Shown one piece after another: positions 8,027 through 52,475 of a stretch of DNA of 64,000 nt (positions within the stretch are counted from its first letter, which is position 1; every line of letters begins with the position of its first letter). The stretch comes from an uncultured candidatus Porisulfidus sp. GTDB lineage: Bacteria > Pseudomonadota > Gammaproteobacteria > Poriferisulfidales > Oxydemutatoraceae. The position numbers and the translations under genes are program-made. The stretch covers positions 864,001 to 928,000 of the forward strand of contig OZ244052.1 of the NCBI GenBank assembly GCA_965215125.1, given 5' to 3'. The notes under the pieces were generated by a model. The model was not told where the DNA came from and did not search any database. It saw only the letters and a list, made by a program, of their open reading frames with translations.

Positions 8027-8088
8027 ACCAAAACCTCATTAGTTGAAAAGCCTATTTTACATGATAACCTACATGCTTAGAGGCGGAC

Positions 8089-8210
8089 TATTCCCCTCCT
8101 GTGGAGGGGTGGCAGGCGCAGCCTGACGGGGTGGTTATTCCCCTCCTGTGGAGGGGTGGCAGGCGCAGCCTGACGGGGTGGTTATTCCCCTCCTGTGGAG
8201 GGGAATGTTG
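8089..8210 (+). repeat. Tandem array of repeat A (47-bp period, about 2.5 copies)
   Basis: TATTCCCCTCCTGTGGAGGGGTGGCAGGCGCAGCCTGACGGGGTGGT starts at 8089 and 8136, with a partial copy at 8183. Confidence 0.95.
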
Positions 8211-8213
8211 CTT

Positions 8214-9005
8214 CTACGGGTGGTTATCAAACTCGGCAATTATCGGGGCATGGTCGGACGGGCGTTCTAGGGTGCGGGGGTGTTTGTCTATGATGCTAGA
8301 TAAGCAATGTTCGCAAAGTTCAGTGTTGGCTAGCAACAGGTCTATGCGCAAGCCTGCGTTTTTATCAAAGCTATTGTTGCGATAATCCCACCAGCTAAAA
8401 GTATCTTCGGTTTTATGTTCAAACAGGCGGAAGGTGTCGGCGAGACCTAAGTCAAAGAAGGTCGCAAGCATTTGACGTTCGGGTTCGGTGCAGAGTATAT
8501 GACCTGCCCACTTTTTAGGGTCGTGTACATCGGCATCGGCAGGGGCAATATTAAAGTCTCCCAAAACAATAATGTGACGGTGTGTTTGCATCTCGGCGGC
8601 GATGAAAGTTCTGATGTGTTCCAGCCACTTCAGTTTATAGTGATAGCGGTCGGAATCCACTTCGGAGCCGTTGACCACATATAGGTTGACGATACGGACA
8701 CCGTCTATGGTTGCGGCTAAAACTCGCTTGTCTTCATCGTCTATATTTGCCACCTCGGTGTTTTCATCGTTCGCTTTGCCGCGATATAACAATGCGACTC
8801 CGTTATAACTTTTCTGCCCACTGAACATGGCTTGATAACCTGCCGCTTTTATTTCCCTTATCGGAAATTGTTCGTCGGTGACTTTGGTTTCCTGCACGGC
8901 AAGTACATCGACTTGGGTATGTTTGAGCCAATCCAATATATGTTTAAGCCGCGTGCGTATAGAGTTGACATTCCATGATGCCACCGTAAATCTCTGGTTG
9001 TGCAC
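8214..9005 (-). CDS. xth: Exodeoxyribonuclease III
   Basis: SWNVNS, QETK, GDFNIAP, WWDYR, RIDL, SDHAP. Confidence 0.96.
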   Translation of the reverse strand: MHNQRFTVASWNVNSIRTRLKHILDWLKHTQVDVLAVQETKVTDEQFPIREIKAAGYQAMFSGQKSYNGVALLYRGKANDENTEVANIDDEDKRVLAATIDGVRIVNLYVVNGSEVDSDRYHYKLKWLEHIRTFIAAEMQTHRHIIVLGDFNIAPADADVHDPKKWAGHILCTEPERQMLATFFDLGLADTFRLFEHKTEDTFSWWDYRNNSFDKNAGLRIDLLLANTELCEHCLSSIIDKHPRTLERPSDHAPIIAEFDNHP

Positions 9006-32271: not shown

Positions 32272-32590
32272 TTAATTCCCCTCCTGTGGAGGGGTGGCAG
32301 GCGCAATAGAACCGCCGTTTGTTGCAAATAATCGTTCCTTGTTGCAGTAGCACAAGGAACATCACCTTATACAAGATTCAGCTATTTATGGCTGTTAGAA
32401 ATAATACGAATAGCAAAGACAAACGGCGTGACATTGTGCAGAACCATAGCATATATACAAAATGTATGCCTTTTCATGGGGTGGTTGCTAAGGGTCTGTA
32501 CAAGGTGCAGTGTCGGTACATTCCCCTCCTTCGGAGGGGTGGCAGGCGTAGCCTGACGGGGTGGTTGTGTGGTATCTGTACCAGTTAATT
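32272..32590 (+). repeat. Mosaic of repeat A, long-form repeat B and repeat A
   Basis: 32294-32444 is nearly identical to 51581-51731. Confidence 0.88.
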
Positions 32591-43691: not shown

Positions 43692-43798
43692 ACATATTTA
43701 CTTGCTTTATACTACAGGGCATCTAATTATTTAGATGTGTTAGTGGCTTGATTTCAAGCCTAATATTTAATCAGATTAATAACCCTCGGGAGGATAAA

Positions 43799-45136
43799 AT
43801 GAAATATCTCAAAAAACTAACAGTAACTATGATTAGCTGTTTACTCTTTACAATACCCACATCTGCATTCGCCGATGCATTTGAAGGTTTATCGATGATG
43901 CGCATGGGCGCATGGGAGGTTGACTTCAGCGGTAACGTAAATGCTTTTGCCACCATAGGCGAATGTGATCCGCAAATAGAAGGTACTTTAGTCGGAGGCG
44001 GTTTAGCCTGTCTAGGAAACGCTAACGACGAAGATTACACCGATGTCAGAGATGGTCTATTGCCGTCATGGTTCAACTTCACCGCTGCGACGGTCACCGA
44101 TAGCGGCATCAGAACCGCCGTTCATCTCAGTTTCCAGCCTGGTACCAGTACTGGGCCTAGTGGTATAGGTATTAATAGAGATGGTGCTCTAGGTCAAAAT
44201 GATGTTAACTTCCGCCAAGTCTTCTTGACTTTCGGCACCGAACAATGGGGCACGATCAAGTTGGGACGCGATCTGGGTGTCTTCGGCAGCGATGCAATCC
44301 TAGAAGATATGACGCTGCTTGGTGTCGGGTCGGGTGCAAATCTTGATGGCCACACTACGCTAGGTCGTATTGGTGTCGGTTATTTGTATGCCGACTGGAA
44401 AGCCCAAGTCCAATATACCTCGCCGAACATGAACGGTTTTACATTCACTGGGGCGATCGTTGATCCTTGGGAAGCAGGTACGCTTGCTGGTGCTCAATAT
44501 AGCCGCGTTGGTGCTCAAACTCAAGAAGATGATACCTATGGTATTGAAGCCAAGCTCAACTACAACTATGCGCTGGGTGACACTTCGGTGAAATTCTGGG
44601 CAGGCTATATCCGCCAAGATTTAGACTTTGAGGACGGCAACGATGCCGAAGCCGATGGTTATGATATCGGTGTCAAGTGGGGCCACGGCAGCTTTGATGT
44701 CGTCGGCTACTACTACGACGGCGAAGGCATCGGCACCACCGGTTTTCTGTTGGATGGCTTGGATGCCGACGGCAACGAGCGCGACTCGGACGGTTTTTAT
44801 ATCCAAGGTCGCTACCGTATGCCTACCGGAACCCTGCTCGGAGTCAGCTACGGCGAAAGTTCGCTGGACGAAACCGCTTATGACCGGACACAGAAAAACA
44901 TGGATAGAGCGAGAATAGCAGCCCTTACACCAACAGCAATAGCAGCAGACCCTACTCTCACCAACCCCACATATAACTTGGTTGATACCAACGAATCTGT
45001 GGTAGTCGGTCTTTATCATCCGATAGGTGAAGCGTTAAATTTAGTGCTTGAATACACCGATACCGAAGCCGAATCGCATAGCGGCATCACCAACGAGGAA
45101 ACAACATTGGCAATCGGTGCCATTATGTTCTTTTAA
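43799..45136 (+). CDS. Gram-negative porin
   Basis: GGAGG RBS; signal peptide; RQVFLTFG..WGTIKLGRD; C-terminal Phe. Confidence 0.88.
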   Translation: MKYLKKLTVTMISCLLFTIPTSAFADAFEGLSMMRMGAWEVDFSGNVNAFATIGECDPQIEGTLVGGGLACLGNANDEDYTDVRDGLLPSWFNFTAATVTDSGIRTAVHLSFQPGTSTGPSGIGINRDGALGQNDVNFRQVFLTFGTEQWGTIKLGRDLGVFGSDAILEDMTLLGVGSGANLDGHTTLGRIGVGYLYADWKAQVQYTSPNMNGFTFTGAIVDPWEAGTLAGAQYSRVGAQTQEDDTYGIEAKLNYNYALGDTSVKFWAGYIRQDLDFEDGNDAEADGYDIGVKWGHGSFDVVGYYYDGEGIGTTGFLLDGLDADGNERDSDGFYIQGRYRMPTGTLLGVSYGESSLDETAYDRTQKNMDRARIAALTPTAIAADPTLTNPTYNLVDTNESVVVGLYHPIGEALNLVLEYTDTEAESHSGITNEETTLAIGAIMFF

Positions 45137-45168
45137 GTACAACAATATCCTTCATATATACTCGTAAT

Positions 45169-45204
45169 GCTGTTGCCGGCTTATCACCGGCAACAGCCTT
45201 TCTT
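45169..45204 (+). terminator. Intrinsic terminator after the porin gene
   Basis: GCTGTTGCCGG-N7-CCGGCAACAGC followed by CTTTCTT. Confidence 0.7.
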
Positions 45205-45220
45205 AAAAACACTCCCCCTA

Positions 45221-45247
45221 AGGGCGGACATGCAAGTCCGCCCCTAC
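45221..45247. repeat. GTAG-type REP-like palindrome (repeat C), intact copy
   Basis: AGGGCGGACATGCAAGTCCGCCCCTAC; variants at 13120, 24526 and 34937. Confidence 0.85.
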
Positions 45248-45534
45248 GGAGGGGTGTTAGGCGTAGCGTATCTGCACAAGTATAGTGTCAGTACATTCCC
45301 CTCCTTCGGAGGGGTGGCCTATGCATTTTGCAATGCATGCGTTTAGCAGTAATGTTGAGGTTCTGAACAAAGTCACGCCGATTGACCTACTGGTTCAATC
45401 GGCAGTTCTATTCAGCCTGACGGGGTGGTCTCCAACCGCTTGCGCCATTTGGTTTTGGTTTCCATAAACTGCGATGAATAAATGTATAAATCATGCAGGC
45501 GCAACGCGTTACAGGCGGACAGATATATTAAACC

Positions 45535-45740
45535 GCAGCTTATTTGATATAAGATAAACGCTTAGGTAGATGCAGTGCCTAGGAAGTCGGAGGAGACACG
45601 CTGCAGGACGGACAAGGCATTAAAGCCTGGTTGCATGAAAAGCACTCCTCCGGCGTTATGACTATAGAGCTCGAAAGGCATCTTGGGACTTTAGATCTCG
45701 TATTTATCTGTTTGAGCGGCGTAGTCATACTTTCCTAGAC
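45535..45740 (+). ncRNA. IS110 bridge RNA (boundaries approximate)
   Basis: Nested stems with two internal loops whose sequences match the target and donor junctions. Confidence 0.82.
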
Positions 45741-45795
45741 TTTGCTTGCTACCTATTATTTCATTAACTCAACAACCCATATGGAGAACATTATT

Positions 45796-46782
45796 ATGGA
45801 AAACAAACAACCCGTCACAATTGGCGTTGATGTCTCTAAAGAGACTTTAGAAACAGCTCTATTATTCACCGATAATAGTTTTGCCGAGCAGCAATTCAGT
45901 AATGATGCCAAAGGCATTAAACAACTGTTATCTTGGGCTACCGAGCATGGTGCGCAACAGTGTCGCCTCTGCGTTGAGGCAACCGGCGGTTTTGAGCTAG
46001 ACCTGTGCATGGAAAGCTATGACCAACATCCCATCACGATTGTGCCACCTGTACAGGTCGCGAGCTACCGCAAAACGCTGGGTATGCGTAATAAAACCGA
46101 TGGCGTTGATGCGCAACTCATCGCACGCTTCGCATTTGCAGTCGGTGATATTCAAGACTGGGAACAGCCTACCGAAGCAGTATTCGCCTTGAGAGATACA
46201 CTGAAATGGCGCCGGCAATTAACCAAGTCCCATACGCAGTTAAGCAACTGTGCAAAGACGCTGCGCAGTATGCAGCTCAAAAAGAAGGCAGCTGCAGAAC
46301 TCGCTCACCTCCAGAAGCAAATCCATGAGTGTGACGCCTTACTTTACGAAATCATCGCTGAAGACGAACAACTCACACAGCAGTATCAATTGCTCTGCTC
46401 TATTACTGGAATCGGAACTCAAACCGCAGCCACCCTATGTGCAGCTTTTGATGATAATACGTTTCAACACCCAAAGCAACTTGCCGCCTATATCGGCATC
46501 ACTCCGATGCGCAAGCAATCCGGCAACTACGAGGCGAAGGCGCACATCTCTAAAATTGGCGATGCACACCTGCGCACCGCACTATTTATGGCGGCACTCT
46601 CGGCTCGGGTTCATAACCCAATCGTCCGTGCGTTCGCCGACCAGTTAAGCCGGCGGCGTCCGGATTTAACCAAAAAGCAGGTTATTGTTGCTTGCGCCCA
46701 TAAACTGACGCGTATCATTTACGGAATACTCAAGCACAAGAAACCGTTTGACCCGAATTATTGTTGCGTATCTGCGTCCTAA
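45796..46782 (+). CDS. IS110 DEDD recombinase/transposase
   Basis: GVDVSK, VEATG and KTDGVDA give D-E-D-D; serine motif QSG; LRTALF, AHKL. Confidence 0.95.
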   Translation: MENKQPVTIGVDVSKETLETALLFTDNSFAEQQFSNDAKGIKQLLSWATEHGAQQCRLCVEATGGFELDLCMESYDQHPITIVPPVQVASYRKTLGMRNKTDGVDAQLIARFAFAVGDIQDWEQPTEAVFALRDTLKWRRQLTKSHTQLSNCAKTLRSMQLKKKAAAELAHLQKQIHECDALLYEIIAEDEQLTQQYQLLCSITGIGTQTAATLCAAFDDNTFQHPKQLAAYIGITPMRKQSGNYEAKAHISKIGDAHLRTALFMAALSARVHNPIVRAFADQLSRRRPDLTKKQVIVACAHKLTRIIYGILKHKKPFDPNYCCVSAS

Positions 46783-46966
46783 ATTGATACTCAGAAGAGA
46801 AGATAGAAAAAGATAAAAAACGAATAAAATAACTTGACTTTGAATAAGGCATCATGCAAGTCCGCCCCTACAATTGGTTTGCGTAATTAGGGGGCGCACA
46901 GCGGTTGGATTTTTGCGCTGCCAATACTTTTACAACAGCCCCGTAGTTTAATGCTAAAATGGCGTA

Positions 46967-47785
46967 ATGCTTTCATACCACACATTCTATAAAATCATCG
47001 TTTATGTATCGGTAATCCTTGCGATACCGATAGGTGCATACGCTCAAGTCGGGCAATGGCAGGAGGGTGAGTTTGTCAAACTCGTGGCACGCGACGGTAC
47101 TCCCGGAATTAGTAATAACCACCCGCTTAAAATTAACCCGCAAACACTTACCGCCGTCCTCGCCGAAATAAAAATTTTGCCTAAAAAGGCGTCCGACGAC
47201 GACGAAGTACCGGAACTGCTGTTCTCAAAATCAAAAACCGAATCTTTGGGAATCAAACTGAGCGAAGCCTTCGGCAAAGCACGCCCGGACGAGGACATCG
47301 CTTTTCAGGTAATGGAAGTATCGCCGCTACTCGGCAAACTCATCAGCAAACCGGTTTATACCACCGGGCGTATGTTCTGGAGAAATAAGCGGTTGCAAAT
47401 AGTCTTCGGGTCTATACAACGAGGCATCGCCAAGCGTAAGTTATTGGGGCAAGATGCCGGCGTTATCAACCCACCGAAAATCGGTAGCCGTGAGCGTGTG
47501 ATTGATTCCGATTATAAGCCTGCGCTATTTCCCGGCACTCGCTACGCAGAAACTCGAAGCGGCACCGTGCGTAGCGACTGGCTTATGATAGACCCGCGCG
47601 AAACCTTGCGCGCACTTTCCGATGCCAAAGAGCAAACCGAGATGCAAACCGAGAACGAGCGCAAAGCGAAACCCGACAACTCCGTCGAGGCGCGTCTCAG
47701 ATATCTGAAAGGCTTGCGAGAACGGGATTTGATATCCGAAGAAAATTACCGATACAAAGTGCGCCAAATTTTGGATAAACTTTAG
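46967..47785 (+). CDS. Exported hypothetical protein with a C-terminal SHOCT-like domain
   Basis: Signal peptide; RLRYLKGLRERDLISEENY. Confidence 0.7.
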   Translation: MLSYHTFYKIIVYVSVILAIPIGAYAQVGQWQEGEFVKLVARDGTPGISNNHPLKINPQTLTAVLAEIKILPKKASDDDEVPELLFSKSKTESLGIKLSEAFGKARPDEDIAFQVMEVSPLLGKLISKPVYTTGRMFWRNKRLQIVFGSIQRGIAKRKLLGQDAGVINPPKIGSRERVIDSDYKPALFPGTRYAETRSGTVRSDWLMIDPRETLRALSDAKEQTEMQTENERKAKPDNSVEARLRYLKGLRERDLISEENYRYKVRQILDKL

Positions 47786-49772: not shown

Positions 49773-51581
49773 CCCTAATTCCGCAATAGACCACCTGCAA
49801 AAGTCCGTAATCTCTTATGTTGCAACACTCTCATGCATATTCCCAATTCACCCATTAGGTGAAACATAATTATTACTAATTTTTTACATAAAACTCTGTA
49901 CAACGCCTTATTTTTTTGTTACTATTTACCAATTAATAACTTCGGAGGTATTATGTCAAAACAAAAAAATCAGCACAATCAATCATCGTATACGCTAGCT
50001 ACCACCCACCAGAAATTGACCTCTCGTTGTGGTTTGTTGGCATTGATTAAAGTGCTCAAAGCACTACAACTTAAGCCACAAGCAGACACTGTGTTTGCGG
50101 CACCGGGTAGCAATCGTGGCTACCGCAATGGCGACATTCTAACGAGCTTCATCTTGATGCTCAACGAGGGTGCGAGATGCCTTGAGGATGTCTGCCATTT
50201 ACACACCGAAAGGGTGTTGCTTAAGCTGGGAGGTATTAACAAGATACCGGGAGCAGACACTTTGGCGAGGTGGTTGAAACGCCATGGTCAAGCCGGTGCC
50301 GGTTTAGTTCACCAGCTCAATCGCACGGTGATTGCCAAGACCCTGAAGTTGTGGAAAGTAAAGCATGTGACTTTGGATATTGATGCGACTACTATTTTGA
50401 CCGAGAAAGTCGGTGCTAAATGGACGCGTTTTAAGGAGCGTGGTTTCATGCTAATGGTCGGCACGCTAGCTGAAGTGGGTCAAGTCATCGCCGTTGAGTT
50501 GCGCCACGGCAATGTCTCCCCGAACTTTGATAATATCGGTTTCATCAAGACCTGCCAAGCACAGTTGCCGAGTGGCGTAATACTCAAGCGGGTGCGTATC
50601 GACTCGGCAGGGTATCAACAAGCAATCATTGAATATCTAGTAGCTCAAGGAATAGAGTTTGTTATTCGTGCGCCGATGTACCCGTCAATAGCGCAAGCGA
50701 TTGCTGGTCTGTCGGAAGCAGACTGGCGACCATTGCGATTAAGCGACGGCAGTTTATCACCCCACGACTATGTGGCTCGCTGCACTTATCAGATGTATCG
50801 CAGCAACCTCGTATTTACGCTAGTCATTCAACGCCGCCTCAAGAGCGAAGCCGCTCGACAGTCTAACCAACCGGAGTTGTCGGGACTGTCTGAACAGCTG
50901 CGCTATCAACCCGACAAGTATGACTATCGTGTGATTGCGACTAACATCAACGGGCTAGACGATGCACAGATTGTACATGAGTATAATCAACGCGGTGAGC
51001 ATTCCGAAAACCGCATTAAAGAACTCAAATCGGATTTTGTTGCCGGTCGTTTGCCGTGTAGTGATTTTGCTGCCAATGCTCTGTATGTTTGTGTGTGTGC
51101 TTTAGCCTACAATGTGTTCGCACTGATGCGTGCCGGCTTAGCTAAACAGTTTCGTTCCTCTAGAGCCCCGACGCTCAGGGTCCGCCTGTTTGGTTTAGCG
51201 GCGAAGATTGTACGACAGGGTCGGCAATGGAAGCTCAAACTACACGAAGTGCATCGTAGTTTATTGAGTGGAGTTTTCTCAGACCTTGATGAGACTATCG
51301 GCAAGCTATTGCCGGATATGCGATACCCCTTGCTACATTAACTAGCCACCTTATCTCTTCATTACTCATAAGGCATCAATCAAAGTAGATGCCATGCCCC
51401 AGCATACCCTAATACTAGAGATTAGAGTACTTTGATGCTTCATTTAGCTCTCAATAGGAGTTTATCTCCCGTCACCGAGCAATGATGTGGCATTCAGTTT
51501 CGGGTTCAGGCGATTGCCCTGATAATTTAGCAGTAAATTATCCATCACATGCAATTTTCATGCTCTATTGAGAAATTAGGG
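49773..51581 (+). mobile_element. IS1380-family element inserted in repeat A
   Basis: TIRs CCCTAATTCCGCAATAGA and CCCTAATTTCTCAATAGA (16/18); TGGCA target duplication at 49768-49772 and 51582-51586. Confidence 0.92.
49953..51341 (+). CDS. IS1380-family DDE transposase
   Basis: LTSRCGL, LDIDAT, RIDSAG, YNQRGEHSENRIKELK. Confidence 0.93.
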   Translation: MSKQKNQHNQSSYTLATTHQKLTSRCGLLALIKVLKALQLKPQADTVFAAPGSNRGYRNGDILTSFILMLNEGARCLEDVCHLHTERVLLKLGGINKIPGADTLARWLKRHGQAGAGLVHQLNRTVIAKTLKLWKVKHVTLDIDATTILTEKVGAKWTRFKERGFMLMVGTLAEVGQVIAVELRHGNVSPNFDNIGFIKTCQAQLPSGVILKRVRIDSAGYQQAIIEYLVAQGIEFVIRAPMYPSIAQAIAGLSEADWRPLRLSDGSLSPHDYVARCTYQMYRSNLVFTLVIQRRLKSEAARQSNQPELSGLSEQLRYQPDKYDYRVIATNINGLDDAQIVHEYNQRGEHSENRIKELKSDFVAGRLPCSDFAANALYVCVCALAYNVFALMRAGLAKQFRSSRAPTLRVRLFGLAAKIVRQGRQWKLKLHEVHRSLLSGVFSDLDETIGKLLPDMRYPLLH

Positions 51582-52475
51582 TGGCAGGCGCAATAGAACC
51601 GCCGTTTGTTGTAAATAACCGTTCCTTGTTGCAGTAGCACAAGGAACGTCACCTTATACAAGATTCAGCTATTTATGGCTGTTAGAAATAATACGAATAG
51701 CAAAGACAAACGGCGTGACATTGTGCAGAACTTTGATACATAGTACAAAATGTAAAGCCTTTCCTTGGGGTGGTCGCAGCGTGGGGCTGTTGAAAAAGTA
51801 TCCATGAACTATAGGGACGGTACATTCCCCTCCTGTGGAGGGGTGGCAGGCGTAGCCTGACGGGGTGGTTGTCAAATATGGAAACCATAATCGGGCGGCG
51901 CAAAGCGATTGGGTTCTTGCAAAACGGGACTTTTTCAACAGCCCCGTCGTATCTGTACTATGTTTATACATTTATCCATCCAATTTATGGAAACCATTAT
52001 TTGTTGGCGCAAGCGGTTGGTGTCGTGCAGAACGGTACTTAAGGGCAGACATCAGAATTGCCGATTGACCTACTGGCTCAATCGGCGGCTTTATCCTGCT
52101 CCTACAGGTGGTTTGCAAATATTCACGACGCAAGCAGTTACGGTTGCACGCTGACGATACTTTTTCAACAGCCCCAGAAATATCTGCACAATTTAATTCC
52201 CCTCCTTCGGAGGGGTGGCCTATGCATTTTGCAATGCATGCGTTTAGCAGTCATGTTGAGGTTTTGAACGAAGTCACGCCGATTGACCTACTGGTTCAAT
52301 CGGCGGTTCTCTTCAGCCTGACGGGGTGGTCGCCGGGGTCTTGCACAATGTCACGCCGATTAACCTACGGGCTTAATCGGCAGCTTTGTTCTGCCCCTAC
52401 AGGTGGTTTGGATAATTATGCGGCGCACAGCGGTTGAGTTTGTGCGATGTCCGCACTTTTTCAACAGGCCCAAGT
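51582..52475. repeat. Large nested mosaic of repeats A, B, C and D
   Basis: Full D copy at 51783-51945; D right ends at 52175 and 52471; 52195-52330 nearly duplicates 45295-45430. Confidence 0.88.

Follow-up and report, generated by a model that had tools for sequence, protein, structure and literature searches.

For the IS110 family of insertion sequences (ISs), targeting of repetitive extragenic palindromic (REP) sequences, promoters formed at circle junctions, tolerance of wobble pairs, and natural reprogramming have already been published. A CT core dinucleotide has been reported for IS621, IS622, and ISPpu10, and the second core base, T, is described as 'almost invariant' among IS621 relatives. 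IS621 also accepts AT, GT, and TT cores provided that its guides are altered accordingly, these being the only alternatives tested. Bridge recombinases are under development as programmable genome-rearrangement tools; according to a review, the core dinucleotide continues to restrict what they can target, and every characterised system found uses CT. These statements, and the comparisons with IS621 and the IS110 family below, refer to those parts of PMC11208160, PMC11208158, PMC11187229, PMC13604230, and 10.1101/2025.05.14.653916 that were available to us, and likewise of the further IS110 sources 10.64898/2026.03.19.712850, PMC13626964, and 10.64898/2026.08.31.748434. The element described here has a CA core. 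It is located in a stretch of 64,000 nucleotides, referred to as the window, from an uncultured candidatus Porisulfidus sp. (contig OZ244052.1, positions 864,001 to 928,000), and is very probably an intact and recently active IS of the IS110 group moving by an IS621-type, bridge-RNA-guided mechanism. This reading draws on the protein family, the catalytic residues, the specificity for site and orientation, an overlap of 2 nt, the predicted folds, and the covariation of the guides with targets and ends, as judged from sequence and comparison. The circle, the transcript, the dependence on RNA, and the cleavage chemistry would be as described in the IS621 literature.

The element comprises 1335 bp on the plus strand (45520-46854; positions are those of the window) with CA at either end. 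It consists of three parts, a non-coding left end of 276 nt (45520-45795), one gene, and a right end of 72 nt (46783-46854). A long left end combined with a short right end is the layout of the IS110 group, whereas the IS1111 group shows the reverse. With a slash marking the border of the element, the left junction reads ...ACAGGCGGA/CAGATATATT and the right junction ...AATAAGGCAT CA/TGCAAGTCCGCCCC. No inverted repeats were present at the termini, and CA is found at both junctions versus a single CA in empty sites. An AC core or a longer core was rejected, as donor and target have only CA in common; the bases beside it differ between the two (A versus T on the left, T versus G on the right). 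Insertion specific for site and orientation, with a short core common to the joined ends and the target and without a true duplication, was seen in all nine copies of the genome and in 20 more copies described below.

The product of the single gene matched the Pfam families PF01548 (DEDD RuvC-like; E = 3.7e-20) and PF02371 (E = 2e-25) as well as NCBIfam NF033542, 'IS110 family RNA-guided transposase' (216 bits, cut-off 140). The structure of the IS621 transposase, 8wt6, was matched by residues 8-321 with E = 2.4e-44. In this alignment D12, E61, D102, D105, and S242 correspond to the catalytic residues D11, E60, D102, D105, and S241 of IS621; judging by all five matches, the chain numbering of 8wt6 appears to be offset by +2. 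An initial annotation of the window had proposed an IS110 element at this position with the DEDD residues and the catalytic serine intact. The element was borne out by the junctions, the protein families, and the comparison of copies, and all five residues align with IS621. The donor had been given as AAGGCAT-CA-GATAT at a circle junction; the end sequences are correct, and the circle junction is a prediction from them.

The target is a palindromic hairpin, GGGCRGAC-loop-GTCYGCCC. In the host genome of the window (2.22 Mb, single contig), GGCRGAC-N-GTCYGCC gave 98 strand-hits, corresponding to about 49 hairpins with at least 12 loop variants, and 0 were expected by chance. By its short GC-rich palindrome and its genome-wide copy number, the target can be counted as REP-like. 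The exact 14-mer GGGCGGACATGCAA of the empty target occurs six times. The element itself is represented by nine copies in two subfamilies. A-type elements are three full copies, of which two are mutually identical and one has a 1-bp loss, one hybrid, and one internally deleted copy. The B-type, showing about 80% DNA identity and 69% protein identity to the A-type, comprises two intact, identical copies and two interrupted ones. As anticipated in the initial annotation, the other genomic copies sit in the same repeat: nine of nine are inserted at CA in a REP-like hairpin in one orientation, AGGGCRGA/CA ... CA/TGCMAGTCCGCCCCTAC, and so are 20 copies in three sister genomes. Exceptions to the right flank TGCMAGTCCGCCCCTAC are the deleted copy, in which this flank is lost, and the hybrid with its TATCAG loop. 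On the left, GGGCGGACA was found in five of the nine copies, GGGCAGA in three others, and AGGCGGA at the window copy.

Two copies are identical across all 1335 bp (0 differences), which is a sign of recent activity. Intact frames of 328 aa in three A-type copies, two identical copy pairs whose flanks differ outside the hairpin, and exact single-dinucleotide junctions at every copy make it hardly credible that the copies are dead relics spread among repeats by homologous recombination or segmental duplication and not by transposition. Points in favor of such relics are the richness of the genome in repeats, seven solo left-end fragments, and the broken copies (one frameshifted, one internally deleted, two interrupted).

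The non-coding left end is predicted to specify the bridge RNA. The minimum free energy fold of 45540-45740 (-62.9 kcal/mol, z = -2.56) yields two modules of stem and internal loop, the target-binding loop (TBL) and the donor-binding loop (DBL), and 3 of 200 shuffled sequences folded equally well or better. Within the TBL, the left target guide (LTG; GGACGGACA) is followed by a distal hairpin and the right target guide (RTG), TTGCATG in the DNA, which is the exact reverse complement of CATGCAA. The DBL encloses the left donor guide (LDG; AAGGCATC) and the right donor guide (RDG; ATTTATCTG). The stems and the four guide segments had been located in the initial annotation and are all present at those positions (Table 1), but two of the pairings given there need refinement. 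For the LTG, 8/9 matches apply to the repeat consensus GGGCGGACA, whereas the left flank of the window copy, AGGCGGA-CA, gives 7/9 plus one G.T wobble. For the RDG, the segment is right, but instead of 8/9 it is better read as AU[UU]AUCUG, 7/7 with CAGATAT and with the two bases in brackets looped out, which is the geometry reported for IS621.

The frequency of such matches by chance was estimated by shuffling the non-coding left end (276 nt) 20,000 times. An LTG with at least 8/9 matches was obtained in 287, the 7-mer in 395, the 8-mer in 73, and the bulged RDG in 468 shuffles (0.4-2.3% each), and any two guide matches jointly in 22. The handshake rule of IS621, by which the base pairs position 7 of the non-cognate DNA and not that of the cognate DNA, is obeyed by A45638 and U45711; for the second handshake base complementarity is inconsistent. 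Positions 1-216 of the left end are 86-95% identical between lineages whose coding sequences share only 66-76%, and the variable columns of the left-end alignment cluster in the guide segments. By analogy with IS621, we infer that the guide RNA is made and needed here.

Natural covariation of the guides was analysed in 28 copies from four genomes of the same genus, eight from the genome of the window and 20 from the three sister genomes. The relatives in the sister genomes show 61-71% protein identity, and all 20 behave in the same way with respect to hairpin, CA, and orientation. Four RTG types are present. UUGCAUG is found with target core plus loop CATGCAA, UAGCAUG with CATGCTA, UAACAUG with CATGTTA, and UGGUAUG with CATGCCA or CATATCA, through wobbles. 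RTG pairing is 7/7 Watson-Crick in 21 of the 28 copies, includes one wobble in five, and contains a mismatch in two. The own RTG type was the unique best of the four for 22 copies and tied for four, and mean pairing was 6.7 of 7 for cognate versus 5.3 of 7 for non-cognate combinations. Sister elements in one genome thereby divide the loop variants of a single host repeat via three bases of one guide. On the donor side, the RDG with AUCUG goes with the end CAGATAT and that with ACCUG with CAGGTAT in 28/28 copies; within the RDG, the subfamilies differ by T or C at a base that is looped out. Changes in the LTG follow the main difference between the two repeat families, C in GGGCGGA versus A in GGGAGGG. 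Since the copies are kin, they represent a handful of independent contrasts and not 28. Judged by these sequences, the evidence for covariation of target and guide is strong for the RTG and partial for the LTG, which is never perfect.

These data also bear on the view that the left-end structure is a mere 5' leader or promoter controlling the transposase, that the protein picks the target, perhaps by the shape of the REP hairpin, and that the guide matches are by-products. RTG and RDG change in step with variants of the target loop and the ends in scaffolds otherwise 86-95% identical, junctions of distant relatives could be predicted from the same arrangement of segments, and the RNA was reported to be required in vitro for the homologous IS621. 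On these grounds a leader without guide function is very improbable, although the target is a structured hairpin, a stem-loop in the ISPpu10 target is reported to add specificity beyond base pairing, and LTG complementarity is imperfect.

A number of observations weigh against bridge-RNA guidance as proposed here or limit the evidence for it. An Rfam scan of 45300-47000 at E <= 1 matched no family. The LTG is never perfect: every copy of the A, B, and G036 types contains one A.C mismatch, and the C-type LTG forms six Watson-Crick pairs and one wobble of 10, with mismatches adjoining the core included. As the target is palindromic, the LTG could equally pair with the 3' arm of the top strand. 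Opposite the second core position, the LTG has A in the window type, G in the B and G036 types, and U in two others, and therefore this base does not track the core A. The LDG carries G opposite donor position 7 (T) in all lineages except that of the window. Two of the 28 copies are located in targets better fitted by another RTG type, and the 12 C-type copies are one lineage. The stem covariation described in the next paragraph is essentially a single outgroup contrast in an alignment fitted to the model. Finally, no joint of right end to left end, as expected for a circle, was listed in the assembled contigs of four runs, which are uninformative on this point, as contigs cannot show rare forms.

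To place the RNA in a wider context, a covariance model was derived from 45585-45731 and the sister sequences, and 151 genomes of the class were searched; after rebuilding of the model, the search was repeated with 151 genomes of the phylum. One further lineage was obtained from the class and seven more from the phylum. These eight relatives give full-length matches to the model (27-118 bits) and share its six helices and its layout of segments; in the alignment of all lineages, one of them, L082, was aligned in the DBL only. With the first outgroup added (nine sequences), 12 of 36 pairs had changed on both sides, and 97.5% of the cells were paired versus 37-50% when the partner was slid.

In the guides of these relatives, the core is of a different type. 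The RDG ends with ...CAAG in 8/8 other lineages, and all seven lineages with an aligned TBL have an LTG with ...CU and one linker base and an RTG with ...AG. Only in the genus of the window do both top-strand guides, RTG and RDG, end with ...UG. CT is found at real junctions in two of the relatives, G107 (six copies) and G223 (two copies); for G223, the RDG with two looped-out bases led to the prediction of CTTGTGT as the start of the left end, which was subsequently confirmed. In the CT lineages, the DBL handshake base is G and faces C at target position 7, whereas here U faces A. Because 8/8 other lineages are of the CT type, CA is regarded as the derived state of this genus, with concerted changes in the RNA. 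The CA core noted initially is thus real at every junction and unusual in the RNA clade.

Ten proteins, six of the CA lineage and four of CT lineages, were aligned with MAFFT. An Asn-Pro motif aligning with N84-P85 of IS621 is kept in all four readable proteins of the CT lineages; the six CA-lineage proteins have P, A, K, R, P, and A instead of Asn. In the window transposase residue 84 (46045-46047) is Pro, so that the motif reads Pro-Pro. In the IS621 structure, N84 is reported to contact G opposite the first core base, and T9 to be read by the main-chain amide of G63; the EATG motif with this Gly is unchanged in the window transposase. The loss of Asn together with the CA core is a correlation from few lineages and is taken as a lead only.

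Two explanations of the CA core have to be considered. According to the first, the element is a genuine bridge-RNA IS110 in which CA has no special meaning: any core matched by both top-strand guides would be accepted, and CA drifted in with the guides while the specificity of the enzyme stayed unchanged. The reported activity of IS621 with AT, GT, and TT cores given matched guides fits such a drift, as does the contact to T9, made in IS621 solely by a main-chain amide, within an EATG motif that is unchanged here. It is less easily combined with a second core T 'almost invariant' in IS621 relatives and T-type in 8/8 other lineages of the RNA clade, or with the loss of the N84-aligned Asn in 6/6 CA-lineage proteins versus its retention in 4/4 of the CT lineages. 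Taken together, drift has nearly an even chance of being correct. The second explanation, which we put forward tentatively as a reasonable possibility, is that a lineage restricted to this genus re-specified the crossover dinucleotide, changing it from an almost universal CT to CA. It would have done so by changing RTG and RDG from ...AG to ...UG and the handshake base from G to U and by losing the Asn at position 84, with LTG pairing to the second core base being dispensable.

A true preference of the enzyme for CA would make it a natural bridge recombinase whose requirement for the core is orthogonal to that of IS621, IS622, and ISPpu10; such a preference would also be a test case for reading of the core by protein. 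A natural, recently active CA element with sisters differing mainly in their guides is a ready-made comparison for core preference. In the literature, no paper pairing 'CA core' with IS110 was found, the supplementary orthologue tables of the 2024 papers being outside this search. By word search, 'core' gave nothing relevant in the accessible parts of the preprints 10.1101/2025.10.25.684509 and 10.64898/2026.08.14.744561. A 2024 analysis, as far as its text was available, applied a filter for 'CT core guides', implying the presence of other cores in its data.

For the bridge-RNA-guided mechanism, the following cycle is proposed. On leaving its site, the element would form a circle that joins its right and left ends at one CA. 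The junction would then form a sigma-70 promoter, TTGACT-17 nt-TATATT, from which the left end would be transcribed, giving an RNA of about 200 nt that contains a 5' hairpin and the two modules with internal loops. In the sister lineages TTGATT is found at the place of TTGACT, and in the integrated copy no sigma-70-like site was found upstream of the RNA. The donor-binding module would hold AAGGCAUC, corresponding to the right end plus C, and AU[UU]AUCUG, corresponding to CA plus GATAT of the left end. The recombinase with its DEDD and Ser residues, bound to the RNA, would exchange strands at CA, so that the element is inserted, always in the same orientation, at the edge of the loop of a REP-like hairpin in the host, GGGCGGA-CA-TGCAAGTCCGCCC. 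Since the target core straddles the boundary of stem and loop, the LTG would read the 5' arm and the RTG the variable loop, which would explain how sister elements share one repeat family yet occupy different loop variants.

One contig of run X1 joins 45519 to 46853 and skips 1333 nt, with 30 nt on its shorter side. It could stem from an empty allele or from a paralogous hairpin, and it was left out of the evidence because of the 30-nt side and near-identical hairpins elsewhere in the genome.

Table 1. Features of the CA-core IS110 element and its target in the window
Feature	Position	Strand	Basis or remark
Unoccupied perfect target hairpin GGCGGAC-ATGCAA-GTCCGCC	45223-45242	+	278 bp upstream of the element, same orientation; 0 mismatches, 0 expected in 100 shuffles
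Left target half (LT), 5' arm of the interrupted REP-like hairpin; CAGGCGGA here, AGGGCGGA or AGGGCAGA at other copies	45512-45519	+	
Core dinucleotide CA, left copy	45520-45521	+	Junction sequence, copy comparison
Right donor half (RD) GATAT, read by RDG	45522-45526	+	Sequence, copy comparison
TATATT, putative -10 half of a promoter forming only at the circle junction	45524-45529	+	Sequence
5' stem-loop of predicted bridge RNA	45561-45583	+	Fold; among sister lineages 1 pair changed on both sides, 3 on one side
TBL module: basal stem, internal loop, distal hairpin	45586-45654	+	Folds, covariation
Target-binding stem, GTCGGAGGAG with CTCCTCCGGC	45586-45595 with 45645-45654		
LTG GGACGGACA, same sense as LT plus core; then 1-nt linker A45615	45606-45614	+	
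Distal hairpin of TBL	45615-45628		
RTG UUGCAUG, complementary to CA+TGCAA	45631-45637	+	
TBL handshake positions AA; A45638 can pair donor position 7 (T46852), not target position 7 (A45519)	45638-45639	+	Sequence versus IS621 rule
DBL module	45657-45729	+	Folds, covariation
Donor-binding stem, TATGACTAT with GTAGTCATA	45657-45665 with 45721-45729		
Donor-binding stem, GCTCG with TGAGC	45669-45673 with 45713-45717		
LDG AAGGCAUC, equal to last 7 nt of right end plus first core base	45675-45682	+	
RDG AU[UU]AUCUG, 7/7 with CAGATAT, two bases looped out	45702-45710	+	
DBL handshake positions UU; U45711 can pair target position 7 (A45519), not donor position 7 (T46852)	45711-45712	+	Sequence versus IS621 rule
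Transposase/bridge recombinase, 328 aa, DEDD RuvC-like domain and Tnp domain; D12, E61, D102, D105, S242	45796-46782	+	Pfam, NCBIfam, structure match
TTGACT, putative -35 half of junction promoter, 17 nt from TATATT once ends are joined	46834-46839	+	Sequence
Left donor half (LD) AAGGCAT	46846-46852	+	Sequence, copy comparison
Core dinucleotide CA, right copy	46853-46854	+	Sequence, genome copies
Right target half: loop TGCAA (RT), then 3' arm GTCCGCCCCTAC	46855-46873	+	

Several copies deviate from the simple form of the element. The hybrid copy (G000:C1:1998246-1999580, minus strand) has a left end of the B-type and a transposase 99% identical to the A-type. It sits in a hairpin with an ATATCA loop, which fits the B-type RTG through one wobble, and suggests that the RNA module was exchanged between subfamilies. 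Two B-type copies of 2474 bp, G000:C1:297990-300463 (minus) and 763826-766299 (plus), share an insertion of 1146 bp, an IS with an rve integrase (Pfam rve, rve_3, HTH), which is flanked by a 6-bp duplication, ACTCGC, and is located at the same position inside the transposase gene. The two composites differ by two bases, yet reside in different hairpins, and the rve element is present in seven copies in the genome. Either a composite that was already broken moved with the help of intact copies acting in trans, or gene conversion has spread the insertion.

An 11-nt direct repeat, AAGGCATTAAA, occurs at 45614-45624 in the distal hairpin of the TBL and at 45911-45921 in the transposase gene. Exactly the stretch between these repeats (element positions 106-391) is lost from the copy at G000:C1:1428678-1429714, which lacks the hairpin on its right and has a distant IS110-family gene beside it. 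Guide-directed recombination as the origin of this deletion was considered and rejected, as ordinary loss between the 11-nt repeats suffices.

The solo left-end fragments are found at G000:C1 1402490, 1981289, 585650, 670310, 521885, 1334511, and 2109565 and cover element positions 1-103, 1-71, 45-103, 1-110, 1-45, 29-108, and 19-60, respectively. Two of them stop at the same base in ...AAGGCATTA, which resembles the right end, ...AAGGCATCA; the one at 521885 is a 45-bp remnant within an otherwise complete hairpin; and two are about 77% diverged, with different guide sequences. In a sister genome, a full C-type copy (L047; G034:C1, around 265499) follows directly on the first 77 nt or so of the left end of another copy, ...GGAGGAGA/CA, with a normal hairpin half on the right. 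It may have arisen when a half-matching site within the RNA gene was used for insertion or recombination. Four more, very distant IS110-family genes are present in the genome of the window at G000:C1 1057679, 550992, and 1428098 (391-aa frames) and 933798 (318 aa), showing 26-30% identity over the C-terminal domain.

The intergenic region around the element, 45137-46966, is a mosaic of other repeat families which recur across the window, for example at 334-594, 8048-8216, 32275-32573, and 51579-52472. The mosaic includes hairpins of the form CCCCTCC..GGAGGGG and GCCGATTGA..TCAATCGGC and units of 'GGGGCTGTTGAAAAAGTA'; of 44 direct-repeat families, 20 were covered. The flanking genes, 43748-45136 (462 aa, signal-peptide-like start) and 46967-47785 (272 aa), gave no Pfam match at E <= 0.001. 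Its core and its set of sisters aside, the mobile element is an ordinary one, situated in a cluster of intergenic repeats.

Compared with the described systems, the element is an ordinary representative of a class that is already known and has been surveyed in thousands of orthologues; its core is a variant. The bispecific bridge-RNA architecture of the IS621 type assumed initially could be followed segment by segment in the published IS621 RNA. The distinctness ascribed to the CA core and a different REP target stands for the core; it was overstated otherwise, as REP targeting and natural reprogramming had already been described. With IS621 of Escherichia coli (structures 8wt6-8wt9), the element shares the two protein domains and the five catalytic residues, a predicted RNA in the long left end, a short right end, and a putative promoter split across the circle junction. 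As far as the available parts of the IS621 reports allow comparison, the RNAs are alike in their two internal-loop modules, each with a stem, a 5' guide, a distal hairpin, and a 3' guide. They also agree in a 9-nt LTG with a 1-nt linker, an 8-nt LDG ending on the first core base, a 9-nt RDG pairing seven bases with two looped out, and handshake positions directly 3' of RTG and RDG, and both elements insert into REP hairpins. They differ in the core, CA versus CT with a T near-invariant in IS621 relatives, in the replacement of N84 by Pro within a protein of distant similarity (E = 2.4e-44), in an RTG of 7 nt here versus the natural 4 in IS621, and in the family of host repeats used.

ISPpu10 of Pseudomonas putida is likewise reported to insert into REP copies by a bridge RNA and to tolerate G.U/G.T wobbles and distal LTG mismatches while the RTG is stringent, and the natural copies studied here show the same pattern. 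In contrast to the present element, ISPpu10 has a CT core, and a GC-rich 5' extension of the target serves as its structural element; here, arm and loop of the hairpin would themselves be read by the guides. Mismatches adjoining the core are not tolerated by ISPpu10, according to the part of that work available, yet they are seen in the C-type sister lineage. ISEc21 and other seekRNA elements of the IS110 type (Siddiquee et al. 2024) are alike by description in a guide RNA from the upstream non-coding region, in the lack of a target duplication when one of the two overlap copies is counted as part of the element, and in natural reprogramming among relatives. The CT-core relatives detected by the covariance model (G107, G223, and six others) share the six helices and the layout of the RNA, but differ in having guides of the CT type and in retaining the Asn-Pro motif in 4/4 readable proteins.

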